Shown here one piece after another: positions 50,141 through 63,365 of a stretch of 64,000 nt of DNA. Under the pieces are notes generated by a model. That model was not told where the DNA came from and searched no databases. It worked only from the letters and a program-made list of their open reading frames with translations. The first letter of the stretch is position 1. Each line of letters begins with the position of its first letter. The DNA is from Convolutriloba macropyga (Eukaryota). The stretch spans positions 33,852,001-33,916,000 of the forward strand of contig NC_134473.1 of assembly GCF_964194025.1 (NCBI RefSeq), in the 5' to 3' direction. The position numbers and the translations under genes are program-made.

Positions 50141-50156
50141 TGTTGAGCTTTGTTTA

Positions 50157-50388
50157 TTTACCACGGTGATAGAACCGATATTTGATACTAAACAATGAAA
50201 GGATTTTATTCAGTCAGTGAATTTCCAACCACACAGACGAGTTAACAACTCTAAAAAATCTCTAATTTAACATAATAATTTCTGCTTAATCTACTTATTA
50301 ATTCAACTTCTTCCTTTTTATTAGTATTTTCACTAGTACAACGCTCAATTAACTACAGACAATATATTGTGCACAGGTGGCTGCAATA
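50157..50388 (+). repeat. Fragment (3' half) of an LTR related to the Gypsy LTR
   Basis: TTTACCACGGTGATAGAACCGATATT, ATCTACTTATTAATT.AACTTC, ACGCTCAATTA and GGCTGC.ATAG shared with 62750-62983. Confidence 0.8.
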
Positions 50389-50479
50389 GTGTCACGGGAT
50401 CTTTTCCGGCGAGTTTAAAACGAGATGGGGTATCTTTAGCTACTTGACATGACACACGCACAGTAAGGAAGTTTCCTGA

Positions 50480-52849: not shown

Positions 52850-55800
52850 GAACAGTTTGAAGCTCGTATACACTAATTGAAATAAGGAAAAATCTTAACT
52901 GGCGATGCCACACATGAAAGTTATATGCATACTGTTAGGAATGGCGCCTCTGAGGATCAAAAAGCACAAGTTGCTTATAAAGAAAGGGAAAAAAATAGAA
53001 GACAGGAAAAAGGCTTTATAATACGATTTTGTTCAAGTGTTGGATAAAAAGTCAGTTCTGTTTTTCAGATCACAGAAAGGTGATTGTACTTGGACTTGGG
53101 ATATATTTTGTAAAAAGTTTAAGAGTTTCGAGAGACCCCAATTACTTAATTTATTATCAGAATTAATAAAACTTAAGAATAACTCGAATGAAAGCACAGT
53201 AGAATACTTAACAAGAGCAGACGACATAAATTTCAAATTGACACTGGTGAACGAAGAAGTTAGCGAGAAAATTTTTGTTTCAATAAATTTGAAGGGACTA
53301 CCTAATAAATACGAGACCTTCATCACACTCTTAACATTGAGAAAAAAAGATAAGAGCGTGGGGGAAATTACGCGGGAACTGATCAATTTTGATAATGAAA
53401 ATTTGAGAGTATATTCAACAATAAAGAAAGAGAATGTTTCAATTGTCAAAAGGTCGCACACATAGCTAAGGATTGTTGACTTCAAAAGGCGAACACAGAA
53501 CAAACAAGGAGGCAACCAAAAAAGGGGCAACCAATTATGTGTTTTCAATGTGGTGAGTCGGGTCACAACTCCAAGTTTTTTAAGAAAAAGAAACCAGAGA
53601 AAAAGCTTATAAGCCAGCGTAGAAAGTTTAGTTGAAGAACCAAAATTTAAGAAACGAGAGTACTTCTCATTCTGTCAAACAACAAGTAATAATCCTTCCT
53701 GTGAACTAGTGTTAGACTCTGGAGCAACAAGTCATATAATTAAGGATGAAAGCATATTTATTGAGATTGACAAAGAATATACAGGGACAAAAACTAACGC
53801 AAATAGTAGCAAAAGTTCAATTGAAGGACAGGGGACAAGTGTGAACGGAAAATAAGATTGTCAATTACTTTACTTGTACCTGATAACTCAAAAATTTTGG
53901 TTTTTGTGTCGGATGAGGTTTTTTTTGGTAAGGACTTAGAGATAAGAGCAAAAAATGGAACAATTTTCCCGTTTGAGGAACATGACTATCTTTTTCATTG
54001 GAAAACAGTAAACTCAACAGGTACAGAAAACTGCATTTTAGTCAGTGGAGACAGAACAAAAGTAAACTTAAAGCACAAACGTCTAAGACATAATATTAAT
54101 GAAGATCTTTTGAAATCAAAGAATCAGGCCATAAGACTTAGAATAAGGGAACATGACGTGCGGAATTGTGAAACTTGTCATTAAATAAATAAAAGAAGAT
54201 TCCCGTTCTGAACGATTCTCGGACAAGAGCCAAGGATGTCTTAGAAATAGTCCATACTGATATAATAGGCCCCAATTCTTTGCAGATATAGGAAATCCAG
54301 AAACGTTGGTGTGCAATGGTGCGTTCGAATTCAATTTGAACGAGAATAAGCAACAATGTATAAAGCAAGGCGTAAAACTAGAGCATTCAGCACCTTATAC
54401 ACCTGAAGAAAATGGTTAAATTGAACGTAATTTTGGAACAAAAAAACCAATGGCGAGATGCCTAATTGAGCAGTCAGGACTTGACAAGACATACTGGCCT
54501 TATGCATTAAACATGTCAATTGACATTAAAAACTTTTGTTTCCAATCTGGGATCAAAAGAACACCATTCGAAGCAATGTATGGACAAAAACCGAGTTTAA
54601 AATCACTAAAAATTTTTGGTTGTACTGCTTACGTTCATATTGAGAAAAGTGATCGGACTTCACAAAAGTATATTCTAGGGATCATCAGATAACAGCAAAA
54701 CATATCTTATAGTAGTAAAGGATAAAAAAGGCACTATTAAAGTAAGCAAGTCTAGAAATATAAATTTCATTGAACAGAAAATATTCAATATTAACTCGTT
54801 AAGTGTATGGCAAACACGGTCATAATAGGAAGCAGATCTGAAGCCAGTATCATTCTTAAAAGAATTGATAACTGATAATGTGATAGTTAAATCAAGAGAA
54901 GAATCAATAAAAGACAAAAACTGATACGAAGCAATGAAAACAGAATATAATCCATTATTTGAAAACAATCTCTGGAAACCTATAGATAATCAGGAAATCA
55001 AACCTATTGGTAGCCGTTGTCATTTTACTCTGAAAATCGAGCCTAGCGGAGAAATAAGGAGATAGGAAGCCAGATTGGTAGCTAACGGTTTTAGCCAATA
55101 CCAGCCATGGCTAAAATGATACCTATTCACCGACAACGCGCCTCTCAACTATCAGGATACTTTTAAGCTATGCACTCCTTTACGATTCTGAGCTCAAACA
55201 AATGACAATAAAACTGCTTTCTTAAATGCTGACATAGTTGAGGAGAACTTTATGCAGAAACCTTACAGTTTTGAAAAATACAATGAGCAAGGAAACCCAT
55301 TAGTCTATAAGCTTAATAAGAGCTTATATGGATTAAAACAATATGATAGGAATTGATTCCTAACAATAAAAGTTTTTCTTGGGGGTTCTGGTTTTGTTCC
55401 CTCTATTCAAGATGAGTGCCTCTTTATAAAAAAGGACATAGGAGATATAGAGGGAATGATCTGTCTTTGGGTAGACGAAGTGGTTATATTAGGAACCCGT
55501 CAAAAATTTGCAAACTATGTTAGTGAGAAGTTCAAAATCCGTTGCTATGGTGCCCTGAGTTGGTTCTTAAACCTTAAAATAGAAAGGATAGAAAACAAAA
55601 TAATACTAAGCCAAGAGGCTTTTATGGAAAAAATAATAGAGAAAAATAAAATGAGTGACGGTAGGACGTTGGAAACACCTCTAGATGTTAGTTCAAAGCT
55701 TTCAAAACTTGAACCACCAAATATAGGAAGCAAAGAATATCAAGAATTGCAGTCATGTGATTATAAAGAAATAGTAAGATGTTTAAATTAATTAGCCTTG

Positions 55801-56112
55801 AATAAACACAACAAAACTGATATTGCACATACAGCTCATATTTTCAGTTCTTTTGTAGAAAATCCGGGGAACAGGCTTGGGAACGACGCAAAAGCATGCC
55901 TACACTACTTGAAGGGTAAAAATTATGAAAAATTTATTTTTATTAAGTGTGACAAATTACATAAAAAATAATTTTGGATTCTGACTGGGCTGGTAACATA
56001 GATAGCAGAAAAAGTACAAGTGGTTATTGTCTCAAGCTTAAAAATATTTCAGGAGCAAAAAGCTGGGCTAGTAAATTACAAAAGAGCGTATAAACCTCCA
56101 CAACTGAAACTG
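52850..56112 (+). pseudogene. Copia gag-pol, many stops and frameshifts, deletion in integrase core
   Basis: ORF fragments 53037-53465, 53858-54184, 54450-54692 and 55456-55791 carry the Copia motifs. Confidence 0.9.
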
Positions 56113-56486
56113 TGTGAGTGTCACACGTATGTAAAAAAAAGGGTGTACTAAAGCCTTGGGTTTCAAGGTCAAAGATTTAGTTTAAACTTTAATTTATTAC
56201 TTGATTAATGACTGACACAATCTTGATAGTTGTCGACAGATCGAAATAGACAAAGCTCGGGCTTCGAGCAATACTAACAATTGTGACATATCAGTATTTA
56301 CTTGGTTAATTTACCACGGTGATAGAACCGATATTGGGTACGGGCAAAACTGAGGATAAAACTCATTCATTGAATAATAAACCTACCTTCAGAGTTAATC
56401 ACTCAATTAGATCTTCCTTTATTTGAAACCATTCTCTTCTACTTTTATCTACTTATTAATTAAACTTCAATCCTTGTATTTTAAAC
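56113..56486 (+). repeat. Gypsy 5' LTR (3' end and primer-binding site deleted)
   Basis: Aligns to 62536-62926 with about 10 substitutions and 4 indels by eye; identity stops abruptly after TCCTTGTATTTTAAAC. Confidence 0.9.
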
Positions 56487-56890
56487 GAAGAAATCTAGTT
56501 TTTGTTTGAAAACCAACTTTTAAACTCGAGTTCGACGTCTTAACATCACAACCCGGAAGAGGAATTGTGGACTGCTGTCGGGATTCGACAAGAACAACTG
56601 CCATATTGGAACTTTCAAGTGAGTACTCCCTAAAAATTCGAATAGCATAAATCAGGGCGTACATATTTTTTTGATAATAAAATAGCGTTCAGAAACATCA
56701 GTATTTTAATTTGACTTAATTTGACTTAAACTCAAGCATTAACCCTCGAGTTTTTTTGCATTTATTGAAGAAGGAATAAGAGTTTCAATCATATTTAAAA
56801 GCTGTTAACTAGAGTGTCGGAAAAATAGTTCGAGTTTCGAACAGAATTATTGAAATATTTTGAATAACATCAGCTTTTGAATAAAATAAG

Positions 56891-57555
56891 GATGGCGCGG
56901 CACTCCTCAAGAACGCTGTTACCGGAACCGTTTACTGGATCAAATTACTTTAAAAGTTATATTACACACTTTGAGCTCTTGTTACAACTTCAAAAGTGGC
57001 TAAGAAAAGAAACAGTAAACGGCGCCAAGACCGAAATTGATGAACGGCCGCATTATTTCGCGTTAAGGCTACAAAAGTTGGCTATTGATCTATCGTACAC
57101 TTTCGGAGGACACTAGAAAGAGTTATGACAAGACCGTAAAGGCTTTCAGACAACATTATAATGAGAAACCAGTAGTTTTCCGGTGGAGGCTAGCTAGGAG
57201 AGTCCAGCAGCCTGGTGAAAAATTAACAGATTTTCTCGGTGATTTGCAAACTTTAGCCTTGAAAGCATACGCTCAGGAGTCTAATGAGATAAGGGAACAT
57301 CTCATTTTGAGGGGATTTCTCGAAGGCAAAGAAAATAGTCAGGTGCGAATCGACCTGAGAAAGAGCTTGGGTGACGCAGATATGACTTTAGACAAAGCTT
57401 TAGAAAGAGCACTACACATTGAGGCAGTCACGAGAATTGAGGAGGAGTATAATGAGCCGCGGGTTTCTCTTCTGCCATCCAGTCGAATGAAAACACACAA
57501 CTGGTTAATTCGATTAACGATTTAGTGCAAACACTGCAGACTAATCAACCTAATA
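56891..57555 (+). pseudogene. gag: Gypsy gag (frameshifted)
   Basis: LLPEPFTGSNYFKSYITHFELL, then LARRVQQPGEKLTDFLGDLQTLALKAY and TLDKALERALHIEA (retrotransposon gag motifs) across ORFs 56877-57116 and 57085-57525. Confidence 0.85.
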
Positions 57556-58211
57556 GCGACACACTCTACAAGCAATTGGGGGAACCGAGCCAGATCAGAA
57601 TGTGCAATAAAAATATAATAGCTGCCAATAACGGGAAAATTCCTATAATGGGGTCAACAGATATTCAAGTTCAACTTCAGAAATTTACATGTGAAATAAC
57701 AGTTAAATTTCTAGTGACCAGAATTGAGATAACGCCTTGTTTATTAGGAATAGAAATCTTGTACAATTTTGACTGTATTTTAATTCTCAGAAAGAACAAA
57801 CTTTTTTGCGGGGCGATTGGGAAAACATTACAATTGGCCCCATCCCAACGAAATAATAAGAATCTGTTTTGAATTGCTGCTGAGGATCACGAAATACCTC
57901 GTCGCTGCGAGGGTTTCTTTAAATGCAAAATTATCGATGAGGAAGGTAACATAACACAGCAAACAGAAATTATAGTCGAACCCATGAAAGGGTTTGAAGA
58001 CAAATCACACCTATTAATAGCGAGATCGCTGAATGACATGGTTGATGATGTCGTATGGGTTCGAGCTCTGAACCCTACATTAGAATCAAAGAAAGTTTAC
58101 AAAAATGCGAGAATCGCATGTGCGGAAAACATTGAAAAATTTTCAAGAGTATAACAAAATAACCCTGACAATTATAAAAAGCATAGGAACGAATTTGATT
58201 TCGAGAAACAC
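57556..58211 (+). pseudogene. Gypsy aspartic protease C-terminal half plus linker; catalytic N-terminal part apparently deleted
   Basis: IIAANNGKIPIMG..FLVT..PCLLGIEILYNFDCIL matches the C-half of retropepsins; no D(T/S)G motif seen upstream; stop at 57870. Confidence 0.7.
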
Positions 58212-59405
58212 GTGAACTCAAGTTCAATGAGCTTGTCTTGTAAAGAAATGACAATAGTGAGGTCACTTTGCACAAAATATGAAGTGTTATCTTCGCGAAA
58301 CTCAAATGATATGGGATTTTCCGACCGAATTAATCATAAAATAAAATTTAAAATGGATGCTGTGCCATTCAGACGTACATACGGCATCATGAGCTTTGCG
58401 AAAAGAAAAACCATGAACAAAATTGTCGAAGACTTGGAACGAGATGACTTAGTCGAACCAACACACTCTGATTGGGCAGCACCATCATTACTGGTACCAA
58501 AAAAAGGCGGAACCTACCGCTTAGTTGTAGACTACCGTGGTCTAAACAAACAAATAGAGAAAACATGCTGGCCTTTGCCACGAATTCATGAGGTTATTGA
58601 TTCACTGGAGGGAAACATGTACTTCTCAAACATTGATCTTCTGTCGGGATACTTTCAAATGGCGCTGGAAGAAGAGAGTCAACAAGTAACAGCTTTTATT
58701 ACACCTTTGGGCCTATATAAGTGGAGGAGGCTCCCTATGGGACTAGCTTCTGCACCAGGAGCTTTTCAAAACCTAATGGAATTGATTTTTGCTGGTCTCT
58801 CTTACCAAGTAGCTTTAGTTTATCTAGACGACGTTATCGTTTTCGGAAGAAATTTCGAGGAACATCTTAAACGGTTAGAGCTGGCTTTCCAACGTTTATC
58901 GGAGAATGGGTTAAAGATTAAAGGATCAAAAAGCAATTTCTTCCAAAAGCGCGTCAGCTTTTTAGGACATATTATATCTGAGAGTGGTGTCGAGGTCGAC
59001 CCAGAGAAAATAAGAGCGGTAGAAAAAATGAAAGAACCATCATCCCTAAAAGACGTCAGGGCTTTTCTGGGCCTTGTGAGCTATTATCGAAAGTTCCTTC
59101 CGGGTTTCGGAAAAACAGCAGAACCTCTTTACAGGTTACTAATTAAATCAAATATATTTGAATGGAGTACAGAGTGCACAAGTGCGGTAGCAGAGTTGAA
59201 GAAAAAGCTTTTAGAAGCCCCAGTTTTAGGATATCCAAACGATAGGGATCAACATACATTAACTACCGATGCATCGTTGATCGTTTTTGTTCTTACACAA
59301 AAACAAGGAACTGAGGATAGAGTTATTGCATATGCTAGCAAAACTTTGAGTAAAATTCAACGAAACTACTCAGCAAATAAGCGGGATTTAATCGCAATAT
59401 TTTGA
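58212..59405 (+). pseudogene. pol: Gypsy reverse transcriptase + N-terminal RNase H, truncated by deletion
   Basis: WAAPSLLVPKK, YRLVVDYRGLN, PLPRI, DLLSGYFQ, LPMGLASAP, YLDD, FLGH, then RNase H LTTDAS and YASKTL..QRNYS; sequence switches to env-like at ~59400. Confidence 0.95.
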
Positions 59406-60669
59406 AGACGATTTAGTAAACTATTTTTTTGAAATCAAGGTGAGCAAACATGTCAAACGATCAAACACTTTAATAAGGAGGACCCTGTAAAAATTTTTGG
59501 TAACAACAAAACCACTTTTATCAGCAGAAAAACTTTGCACAAAAACAAATATGAAGATTTTGCATTAGAAATCTTAGAGTAAAAAGCAATTAGTTTGTGT
59601 GGACAGCAGGTGAAAACAACCGGAGTTCCAGGTGTTTTTTACTCCGAGAAAAGTTCAGAATTGAAAACTGGTAATCTTAAAATAACCATGGAAATGTTTC
59701 TTTCAAGCGTCGTTGACACCTTGAATTTCGAACTTCTCAAGGAGAGAAAATTTTTTTTATGAAAATTAGAACGCTCCATTGCGAGATTCAACGACTAAAA
59801 ATTCAAACTATGATTGAAATATCAAAAAACATTGTTAGTCCATCGGTAACACTCTTCGAGAAAGGAACTCTCGTCAAAAGAGCAGGATTTGTGTTGTATG
59901 TTCATAAATGTGCAAAGATGGTAGCAACAATAACTAAACTTTCTTTTTGCACAGAAGAAGTTCCTGTGTTAGTAGAGGGTCAGAATTTTTCTTCAATTAG
60001 ATATATGGACCCTATTACAAAAATTTTGTATCATAATTATACAATCGCTGCATGCAACCCGCTGTACCCAAATGTTGTGAAATTAGAAGACGGCAGTTTT
60101 CAACAATATGGAGAAACGCTGAAGAAATTCAATCGTCAGATATATCAGTGGTCGATGAATAATAACTTAAATGTAAGTGATGAAAATCTGCATCGCAGCT
60201 TTTTCTCCATATCAGACGTGAAACAGAGTCCAATTGCACGAACAATTCGCCATAATAGTAAAGGAATTATCATGCGGGAAGCATTCCCCGAGATTCGGAT
60301 GGAAAAAACAGTCATGAAAATTTTATTCATCGGAACGCTCAGTTCCAAAAACAATTTTTTCTAACAAATGTAATAACAATTTTTCGTAACTTAAAAACTG
60401 AAAGCTTATAGGTTTTGTTAAAAGCTAAGGACATTGTTGTGTCAGTCTTAACAGTCTACCTCATATTCCAAGTTGTGAAAAATTTTCCTAAATTGTTCAT
60501 CTATTTAGGATTAGTCATTAATGGAGCCTCCTGGCAACAACCGTTGCGGAATCTCGACCCAGTAACGGGAACACACATGTATAATCAACTACTCAAATTA
60601 ATTAATGAGCGCCGAGAACAAAAGAAAATGATTGAAGAGAAAGAGTCCTTGAACGAGTCGGTTGTGTAA
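59401..60669 (+). pseudogene. env: Envelope-like glycoprotein (C-terminal part) resembling chuvirus G / Tas-type class III-like env; frameshifted
   Basis: Cys-spaced ectodomain motifs FALEI..SLCGQQVKTTGVPGVF, HCEIQR, AGFVLYVHKC..V, FCTEEVPV, YMDPITKIL, CNPLYP; N-glycosylation sequons (NFS, NYT, NVS); C-terminal hydrophobic segment DIVVSVLTVYLIFQVV..LFIYLGLVI and charged tail; located after pol. Confidence 0.78.
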
Positions 60670-61459
60670 AAAAAATGAAAATGAGTTGTCTTGAGTTCAA
60701 GACCAAAAAAATGAAAATGATTTGACTTGAGTTCAGGACCATAAAAATGAATGAAAAAGACTTGTCTTGAGTTCAGGACGAAAGAAAATGAAAATGACTT
60801 GTCTTGAGTTCAAGACCAAAAAAAACGAAAATGAGTTGTCTTGAGTTGAAGACCCAAAAAAAATGAAAATGAGTTGTCTTCAGTTCAAGACCAAAAAAAA
60901 AGAAAATGATTTGTCTTGAGTTCAGCACCAAAGAAATGAATGAAAATGACTTGTCATGAGTTCAGGACGAAAGAAAATGAAAATGACTTGTCTTGAGTTC
61001 AAGACCAAAAAAAATGAGTAGTCTTGAGTTCAAGACCCAAAAAAAAAATGAAAATGATTTGACTTGAGTTCAGGACCATAAAAATGAATGAAAAAGACTT
61101 GTCTTGAGTTCAGGACGAAAAAAAATGAAAATGACTTGTCTTGAGTTCAAGACCAAAAAAAAAACGAAAATGAGTTGTCTTGAGTTGAAGACCCAAAAAA
61201 AATGAAAATGAGTTGTCTTCAGTTCAAGACCAAAAAAAAAGAAAATGATTTGTCTTGAGTTCAGCACCAAAAAAAATGAATGAAAATGAATTGTCATGAG
61301 TTCAGGACGAAAAAAAGATGAAAATGACTTGTCTTGAGTTCAAGACCAAAAAAAATTAAAATTAGTTGTCTTGAGTTCAAGACCAAAAAAAAATGAAAAA
61401 GAGTTGTCTTGAGGTCAAGACCATTACAAAATAAGGGAAAAGTCTTGAGATCAAGACTG
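60669..61459 (+). repeat. Tandem array of ~21 units (~36-40 bp), each with a GTCTTGA-GT-TCAAGAC inverted repeat
   Basis: Consensus A(n)TGAAAATGA(G/C)TTGTCTTGAGTTCAAGACC; variant units 2-8 recur as units 11-17 (higher-order period ~337 bp). Confidence 0.95.
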
Positions 61460-61487
61460 AAATTATTGAGAAACTTTAGAAGCAAAA

Positions 61488-62406
61488 ATGGTTTCTATTA
61501 AACATAGCAGGCAGTGAGATCCCACAAATTGGTGAAATTGTGTACTATATGCCAGAGTTGTGGAAACTTATTTCGTAGATTTCCCCGGGAGTGTACCGAG
61601 TTGAATCTTGTCTGTCACGGACTCGAAAGTTGTCTAGACTAGAACTTCTGGTACCCGCCAATATTCGGCCCCGAGCTCTGCAGACTGAAGTGGAACTGCA
61701 AATCCAGTGCGCGCAGTTAGAGAAATTGAAGAGTACAAACTCTTTACTCCAAAAGGATCTTGTCGAGCTTCGACAAAAACTAGACAAACATTGCGACAAA
61801 GCCAAAGAGGTAACAAGAGAAGCATTGAGAAAACTGAGCGCCCAGTGTGAGGCGCTAAGAGATAACCTAAAGGCGGCGGCAGCTAGAAATGGGGAACAAG
61901 AGCAGTCAATCGACTTACTTAAGCAGGAGTTGGCCGATCTAAAAGTCAATACTGATAAAAAGAACAAAGCCATGGAGAAAATGGAGAAAGAGAATGACCA
62001 ATTGAAGTCGGAGCTTCAGCAGTTGGAAAACTATAACCAATACTTGGCGAATGAGTGCCGAAGTAAAGACACTATAATTGATAGACAAAAGCATTCTTTG
62101 AAGAACGAGAAAGACAAAACGAAGGTCACAGAAAAATGTTTATTCGAGATTCGGAATAAAAATGTATTGAATCGGCCTGCGACATTGTACGAGATTTTGT
62201 TGATAAAAAGTTTTGCTTCAAAAGATCAGATCAAAAAACACTACCACAAAATGAGCTTGTTGACGCACCCTGATGCTGATGGAGATGAGGAGTTTTTCAA
62301 GACCATTAATCGAGCATACCAAATACTGATGAACGATGGGGCGCGAGAAGCGTACAACAATTTCGGGCTGGACGAGGCAGAGAAAGTCATGAATGACGAA
62401 AACTAA
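61488..62406 (+). CDS. Coiled-coil protein with C-terminal DnaJ/J-domain encoded inside the Gypsy element; 5' end damaged
   Basis: Open frame 61591-62406 (271 aa): heptad-rich E/K/L/Q middle, then TLYEILLI..ASKDQIKKHYHKMSLLTHPD..GDEEFFKTINRAYQILMNDGAREAYNNFG (62182-62370). The upstream frame has a TAG at 61576 and needs a 1-nt shift to reach ATG 61488. Confidence 0.88.
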
Positions 62407-62535
62407 TACCTAAACTTTTTATATGAAAAGCACAAACTTTTTGTATTTTAAAACGTTCATGCATCAAGAGCTGTAAAATTTGTTTAATTTTATGTGAGTG
62501 AGTGGCACGCTCTATTCTTATTGAGAGCGGGGCAG

Positions 62536-62982
62536 TGTGAGTGTCACACGTATGTAAAAAAAAGGTGTACTAAAAACCTTGGGTTTCAAGGTCAAAGATT
62601 TAGTTTAAACTTATTACTTAAATTTGAGTAATTTATTACTTGATTAATGACTGACATAATCTTGATAGGTGTCGACAGATTGAAATAGTCAAAGCTCGGG
62701 CTTCGAGCAATACTAACAATTGTGACATATCAGTATTTACTTGGTTAATTTACCACGGTGATAGAACCAATATTGGGTACGGGCAAAACTGAGGATAAAA
62801 CTCATTCATTGAATAATAAACCTACCTTCAGAGTTAATCACTCAATTAGATCTTCATTTATTTGAAACCAATCTCTTCTGCTTTTTATCTACTTATTAAT
62901 TGAACTTCAATCCTTGTATTTTAAACAAGTACCACGCTCAATTACAAAAGATAATACATATTGCGCATGGGCGGCTGCTATA
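62536..62982 (+). repeat. Gypsy 3' LTR
   Basis: Follows the PPT; TG start, ends GGCTGCTATA immediately before the target duplication and resumption of the Copia reading frame. Confidence 0.88.
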
Positions 62983-63365
62983 GCTGAACTGAATGCAGCA
63001 GCTGAGGCAAGCAAAGAGGTGGTACGCTTAGCAAACCTTTTGAAGGAAATGAACATAGATGTTGAGCAAACTTTGAATGTTTTTGTAGATATTCAAGCAC
63101 GTATTGCTCTTAGTAAGAATTCCATGAACCATGGCAAGACTAACCCCTTTGCTCAACATCTATGTCACTAACCCCTTTGCTCAACATCTATGTCACTAAC
63201 CCCTTTGCGTTGAAGGTGCACTTCATTTGGAACTTAGTCGGGAAAAATGTATTAGATCTGAACTACTTGCCTTTCGATGGCATGCCGGCAGAAACCCTAA
63301 CAAAAGCTTTGGGGAGAACAAAAATTTCATTTTTGCGTGATGTTCTCCTAGGTTCAAACACTTAA
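62983..63365 (+). pseudogene. Copia RNase H C-terminal half
   Basis: AELNAAAEASKEV, VFVDIQARIALSKN..HGKT, LKVHFI, MPAETLTKAL; 28-bp tandem duplication at 63138-63208. Confidence 0.88.

Follow-up and report, generated by a model that had tools for sequence, protein, structure and literature searches.

Organization of the locus

The window (the whole 64,000-nucleotide stretch of Convolutriloba macropyga contig NC_134473.1 that was analysed) carries a damaged Ty3/Gypsy-type retrotransposon at 56113-62982. It is inserted in the RNase H region of a decayed Copia relic, sequence of which flanks the target-site duplication on both sides. The features are as follows:

53022..56108, resuming at 62987-63365, + strand: Ty1/Copia relic (Pfam Retrotran_gag_2, 1.3e-10; RVT_2, 7e-11)
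56109..56112, + strand: 5' target-site duplication, 4 bp, with one mismatch relative to the 3' copy at 62983-62986
56113..56486, + strand: 5' LTR; compared with siblings, ~55 bases at its end and the primer-binding site have been deleted
56892..57554, + strand: gag remnant, frame-broken (tblastn and blastn with sibling L021)
57555..59402, + strand: pol remnant, with protease, RT (YLDD) and the first part of RNase H (Pfam RVT_1, 3.7e-31; RT_RNaseH_2, 2.1e-18)
59397..59402, + strand: point where ~2.9 kb has been lost, located by comparing L021 and L023 with the window by blastn
59397..60669, + strand: env remnant, corresponding to about residues 244-666 of the class III glycoprotein of the family (666 aa), its frame broken three times and interrupted by two in-frame stops
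60668..61423, + strand: tandem array separating env from ORF4, made of about 20 copies of a 37-bp unit
61492..62406, + strand: ORF4, encoding a beta-rich motif at the N-terminus, then a coiled coil, then a J-domain at the C-terminus; the frame is open over 61579-62406, and a stop interrupts the 5' part
62185..62358, + strand: J-domain (DnaJ) with its HPD motif (Pfam PF00226, 58 bits, cut-off 27.8, E 1.1e-15)
62536..62982, + strand: 3' LTR, with TG...TA ends and a purine-rich tract in front of it

The termini of the element are thus TG...TA, not TG...CA, and exact 4-bp target-site duplications were found in three of the four sibling copies that possess both LTRs. Relative to the siblings L021 and L023, the window copy has undergone three deletions. 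One removed the end of the 5' LTR and the primer site; a second, of ~0.5 kb near 57556, removed the gag zinc knuckle, which is found as zf-CCHC in the sibling; the third, of ~2.9 kb when measured against L021, took the end of RNase H, the whole integrase and residues 1 to ~243 of env. What remains of pol matches sibling pol at 91%. In L023 and L021 the pol domains are arranged in the order gag-asp_proteas, RVT_1, RT_RNaseH, Integrase_H2C2, rve and Integrase_p58_C, which is the Gypsy-type PR-RT-RH-IN order; since RVT_1 and RT_RNaseH_2 are retained in the window, the Gypsy backbone assigned in the original prediction holds. The two LTRs of the window copy differ at 10 of 373 aligned bases, versus 1/430, 5/428, 3/430 and 7/429 in four siblings, from which we conclude that the window copy is older and dead and that the family was mobile until recently.

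The same family has left other traces nearby. Upstream of the Copia relic, at 50148-50391, lies an older relic of the same LTR (71% identical). Just 3' of the window, the locus L129 (33918500-33923300) has the same pol-env deletion and aligns straight across it at 97.5%, which indicates that L129 is a local duplicate of the window copy. The 37-bp array is shorter and variable in siblings, and is absent from a sister family (family B, the window copy belonging to family A), where ORF4 begins right after env. Families A and B have the same primer-binding-site-like sequence 3' of the 5' LTR (L021-L029, L148), despite LTR lengths of 430 versus 617 bases.

The env remnant and its intact siblings

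The env motifs listed in the original prediction are all present, spread over three reading frames of 59397-60669, and succeed one another as predicted: FAL..LCG..T..P..F, a C..QR-type motif, AG.VLYV.KC..V, C..E.PV, YMDP.TKIL and CNPL.P, then a hydrophobic segment. The reading frame is broken near 59750 and 60290, close to the frameshifts announced at ~59755 and ~60320, and also near 59440, a break which had been missed; the in-frame stops lie near 59580 and 60409. The largest open piece (59717-60361) matches the Pfam family PF24664, Monjiviricetes_fusion, with 37.8 bits (cut-off 27, E 7.6e-10), and the remnant as a whole is 95.6% identical in nucleotide sequence to the open env of L021. The signal peptide had been thought to be lost with the integrase; the same deletion did remove both, but it took ~243 residues of env and not just the signal peptide.

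At least 151 matches to env exist in the genome, 150 of the 2006 candidates having been scored. An open env was found in each of the five siblings fetched for long frames (677 codons from stop to stop, 666 from Met). Both of the sibling envs scanned against PF24664 were above the cut-off, the window copy and its siblings spanning 37.8-41.6 bits (cut-off 27). Maximal Kyte-Doolittle hydropathy over 19-mers was 1.88 for the window tail, 1.56 for L021, and 2.18 and 2.27 for families B and C, the membrane anchor of family A being weakly hydrophobic (1.56).

The predicted fold of env

The protein modelled was the L021 ectodomain, not the broken copy of the window. An earlier model, built on a 9-row alignment, was unusable (pLDDT 29). 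The final one, built on an 82-row alignment of related families and database fragments, reached a pLDDT of 68.6 and a pTM of 0.57, with residues 446-550 below a pLDDT of 50; five of the alignment rows came from env families with a stronger Pfam match, so that the evidence on the fold depends in part on those families.

The likeness to chuvirus G and herpes gB that had been anticipated was borne out when this model was submitted to Foldseek. Against the PDB, all the top rows listed were herpes gB, the best with an E of 8.4e-11, and 105 matches had E<=0.001. Against BFVD, the best E was 2.9e-22 and the top matches were chu-, xinmo-, qin- and rhabdo-like virus glycoproteins, 12-16% identical to the query, the chu-like ones being mixed with the xinmo-, qin- and rhabdo-like ones at similar E. 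VIA-align gave a Z of 8.4 to gB (a Z of 7-8 being middling) and superposed model residues 46-222 on the fusion domain of rabies G (53-183) with an rmsd of 4.2 over 94 residues. Whole-chain TM-scores were only 0.2-0.35, with large rmsd, which may reflect a different domain arrangement in the monomer model. As model residues 46-222 correspond to env residues 81-257, the deletion in the window copy took nearly the whole predicted fusion domain. An Atlas feature search, of low recognition value and used as a lead, placed 16 of 30 matches in Monjiviricetes fusion clusters (best 0.96), followed by rhabdovirus G and gB; by sequence, env had no match to any solved structure in the PDB.

The Pfam PF24664 match, together with a predicted fold that matches gB and viral glycoproteins, confirms that env belongs to the class III (gB-like, Monjiviricetes-type) fusogen family rather than to errantivirus F. 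It is thus to a class III family (by Pfam) and to a class III fold (by Foldseek) that env is positively assigned, and not to the class I F type. The original description, a chuvirus/Tas-type env as opposed to F, was therefore right as to the class, on which Pfam, Foldseek and VIA-align agree, but the label 'chuvirus' is too narrow for such a mixture of viral matches. With the Monjiviricetes glycoproteins (chu-, xinmo- and rhabdo-like; PF24664) and herpesvirus gB, env shares a Pfam score above cut-off and the predicted class III domain order; it differs from them by an identity of at most 16% and by being encoded by a retroelement. The nematode Tas env is considered gB-like.

Selection on env and its probable role

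Variation in env was analysed among 41 of 45 loci, those covering more than half of the gene. Variants common to at least 3 of the 41 copies had a pN/pS of 0.55 and comprised no stop, versus a pN/pS of 1.02 and 57 stops for the singletons (shared versus singleton, Fisher p=0.016). This difference indicates that env is under purifying selection in the source elements, the singleton variants with their stops being as expected for decay after insertion.

We consider it very probable that the stretch is a broken class III env in a dead Ty3/Gypsy copy from a family with the layout gag-pol-env-ORF4, and that in the intact members env would fuse particles into neighbouring cells and ORF4 would recruit host Hsp70 via its J-domain. 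By extension from the known family, the intact env would be a trimeric type I membrane glycoprotein, with signal peptide, ectodomain and C-terminal anchor, and would pass element particles from cell to cell, as the F-type env does for Drosophila gypsy. An env that is class III by descent and no longer a fusogen, but rather a surface or receptor-blocking protein in a family spreading in the germ line only, is an unlikely alternative in view of what has been conserved: the envs of families A-D, at 27-31% identity, have all retained the signal peptide, the complete ectodomain and the anchor, and env is under purifying selection in family A. Its appeal lies in the cysteines, fewer in the alignment for family A than for families E-I (with family B lacking some more), in the weak anchor, and in the mechanism of gB-type errantiviruses being stated as unknown by Chary and Hayashi (eLife 2026, PMC13524379).

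ORF4, a gene with a J-domain

ORF4 is the least ordinary feature of the element. Its match to PF00226 scored 58-60 bits in family A and 52 bits in family B (cut-off 27.8), and its J-domain matched 56 PDB J-domain sequences at E<=0.001. ORF4 matches number at least 151 in the genome for family A and at least 138 for family B. Of 45 family-A loci, 42 of them selected through env and 3 through a J match, 44 covered more than 50% of the gene, and HPD was intact in 39 of these 44. In sister family B, where the same ORF4 gene occupies the same place after env, HPD was intact in 11 of 12 loci and env lay within 1.5 kb in 11 of 12. The two families are 76% identical in RT and 30.6% in env; for ORF4, identities amount to 26/63 in the N-terminal part, 33/115 in the coil and 28/82 in the J-domain. 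A hydrophobic segment is absent from both versions of ORF4.

When compared with 17 host J-domains, those of families A and B formed one clade (support 99/95). The best host match for both families was the DNAJB12-like L180 (52 bits versus 45 and 51 for the next); as a J-domain donor, L180 received a tree support of 80/52 and is a lead only. A search for ORF4 homologs returned 226 matches, and among the 120 listed all were ENA proteins with identities fitting families A and B; an Atlas feature search with ORF4 gave no usable match. For the N-terminal motif, the best hits of a profile search were Integrase_p58_C (E 0.14) and a WW domain (E 1.1); the family's own integrase tail, considered as a possible source, did not match, and an SH3/Tudor-like fold is our guess. 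In the contigs of three runs, examined for signs of expression, only many diverged copies were visible.

We lean towards the view that, in an env-bearing Gypsy lineage, a J-domain captured from the host (DNAJB12-like by its best match) became an Hsp70 co-chaperone gene of the element itself, placed after env and retained by two families that diverged long ago and have moved recently. It would be the retroelement counterpart of the polyomavirus T-antigen J-domain, undescribed for LTR elements. Much less probable is a passive ORF4, derived from an exon for a host J-domain that was acquired once and carried without benefit. The within-family selection test would allow this, being not significant for ORF4 in family A (0.54 versus 0.76, p=0.36), as would the variable start position of ORF4 between copies and the situation in families C and D, which belong to the same env clade and have a different ORF4 without HPD. 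The case for conservation, however, comes from what was kept between families A and B and not from the within-family test: open frame, domain order and HPD persist in two families that have drifted to ~30% ORF4 identity, the same level as env, and neutral cargo would lose its open frame over such a distance.

As a co-chaperone, ORF4 would act as a soluble adaptor, given the lack of a hydrophobic segment; its N-terminal module or its coiled coil would bind a client, to which the HPD-containing J-domain would bring Hsp70. Our tentative first choice for this client is the element's own Gag or particle, during assembly or uncoating. A possible but weaker candidate is a host complex involved in silencing or defence, which would be dismantled following the logic of SV40 T antigen, and another client, or none, seems slightly less likely still.

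In SV40 T antigen, a virus-encoded J-domain linked to further modules brings Hsc70 to a client (PMC7356129). ORF4 likewise has its J-domain linked to further modules, the likeness being one of analogy, but in ORF4 the J-domain is C-terminal and follows a coiled coil. Captured accessory ORFs downstream of pol are known from bdelloid LTR elements, with a GDSL esterase and a DEDDy exonuclease (PMC5408684). These are ORF3s that replace env, whereas ORF4 is added after env, and DnaJ is not mentioned in the available text of that paper. No J-domain gene in LTR elements was found in the literature searched, whose scope left out most subscription papers and Repbase; we thus found no earlier description of such an ORF4, and the literature search on viral J-domains yielded nothing relevant either. 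If our reading of ORF4 is true, an env-bearing retrotransposon would possess a dedicated tool for steering the chaperone machinery of its host, in the manner of some true viruses. It would also offer a testable handle on the assembly, cell entry and silencing evasion of gB-type elements, matters left open by the 2026 survey (PMC13524379).

Origin of env

The other PF24664 families of the genome are all on Gypsy-type pol wherever pol is readable. The env of family A is 26-31% identical to those of families B, C and D and of P0001 (an ENA protein, see below), and ~20% identical, over short stretches, to those of families E-I. The RT tree (built with families of this genome only, and leaving out the RT of families F and I) and the env tree each separate families A-D from E-H at 100/100. 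In the RT tree A groups with B at 90/97; in the env tree, subject to a long-branch warning, this grouping is not resolved.

As the families fall into the same groups in both trees, the data fit an env travelling with pol, as described by Chary and Hayashi (PMC13524379). Their survey, with 1,512 elements published, reports Gypsy elements with gB-type env, including chuvirus-like ones, across animals; baits made of mosquito BEL/Pao chuvirus-like glycoproteins recovered 114 Gypsy elements, and in gB-type errantiviruses env tracks pol. The original prediction had accounted for a class III env on a Gypsy backbone by independent capture or by transfer between LTR superfamilies. The combination was already published (PMC13524379), and with env and RT trees in agreement across the families sampled and Gypsy-type pol wherever it was read, neither a recent capture nor a transfer from BEL/Pao finds support. 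Most likely, to judge from the trees, env came down together with pol from an ancient Gypsy lineage that already bore an env, and was not captured recently; an ancient env exchange with BEL/Pao is possible. A fairly recent, independent capture of env from a chuvirus-like RNA virus, or its passage from a BEL/Pao element, is highly improbable: although chu-like viruses are among the best BFVD matches, two env clades ~20% identical in one genome permit separate captures and occasional env exchange was reported by Chary and Hayashi (PMC13524379), every viral match is at most 16% identical to env, the PF24664 score of family A (40 bits) is far below those of families E (162 bits) and I (132 bits), env follows RT across the families sampled, and no BEL/Pao-type pol stands beside any env read.

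The present family stands close to the HSV/gB-type errantiviruses (PMC13524379). Common to both are the Gypsy pol, the gag-pol-env order, the LTRs, multiple copies, env tracking pol, and an env made of signal peptide, gB-like ectodomain (by predicted fold, in the present case) and anchor. The difference is the fourth ORF with its J-domain, which is unmentioned in the available text of that survey and in 7 supplements. Acoel names are absent from the same text and supplements, and three motifs of the family-A env are absent from the text supplements, the survey's sequence files possibly lying elsewhere (GitHub). As to env itself, the present family adds a further, very divergent member to this published class and leaves the picture unchanged.

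The mosquito element Anakin, described by Dezordi et al. (2020, PMC7642597), is also an LTR element in which a glycoprotein related to that of chuviruses lies downstream of pol. By its description it is set apart by a BEL/Pao backbone and a clear chuvirus ancestry, versus a Gypsy backbone and a remote likeness to chu-like G here. In the discussion of that paper, Tas is assigned to a phlebovirus and Cer to a herpesvirus.

Related elements

Database searches with env returned mostly relatives from the same or a close organism. Among the 150 matches listed of the 441 given by phmmer against 1.84 billion representatives, 118 were at least 55% identical to the env families of this genome. A word-index protein search with a single env confirmed none of 6563 candidates; when the env alignment was used, one of 8000 was retained, P0001 (26% over 612 columns, pairwise E 9e-79). 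No env match was found in phages, and in viral contigs none of 40 pattern matches was confirmed. P0001 (8,419 bases in ENA) has an env 54% identical to that of family C and 26% to that of family A, and is possibly an element of another host.

Family C (L146, L164 and 40-odd matches) has a 684-codon open env in many near-identical copies, which suggests that it spread very recently. At least two env clades are found with a Gypsy backbone in this genome, env being followed in each clade by an extra ORF particular to it, and they constitute a natural series for following accessory gene turnover. The envs of the second clade (L061-L080, families E-I) are 750-900 aa long, score 132-162 bits on PF24664 and accompany a Gypsy pol with YIDD; other unassigned ORFs follow env in each of these families. 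In family I, a gap of ~3.8 kb separates pol from env, and env is N-terminally extended.
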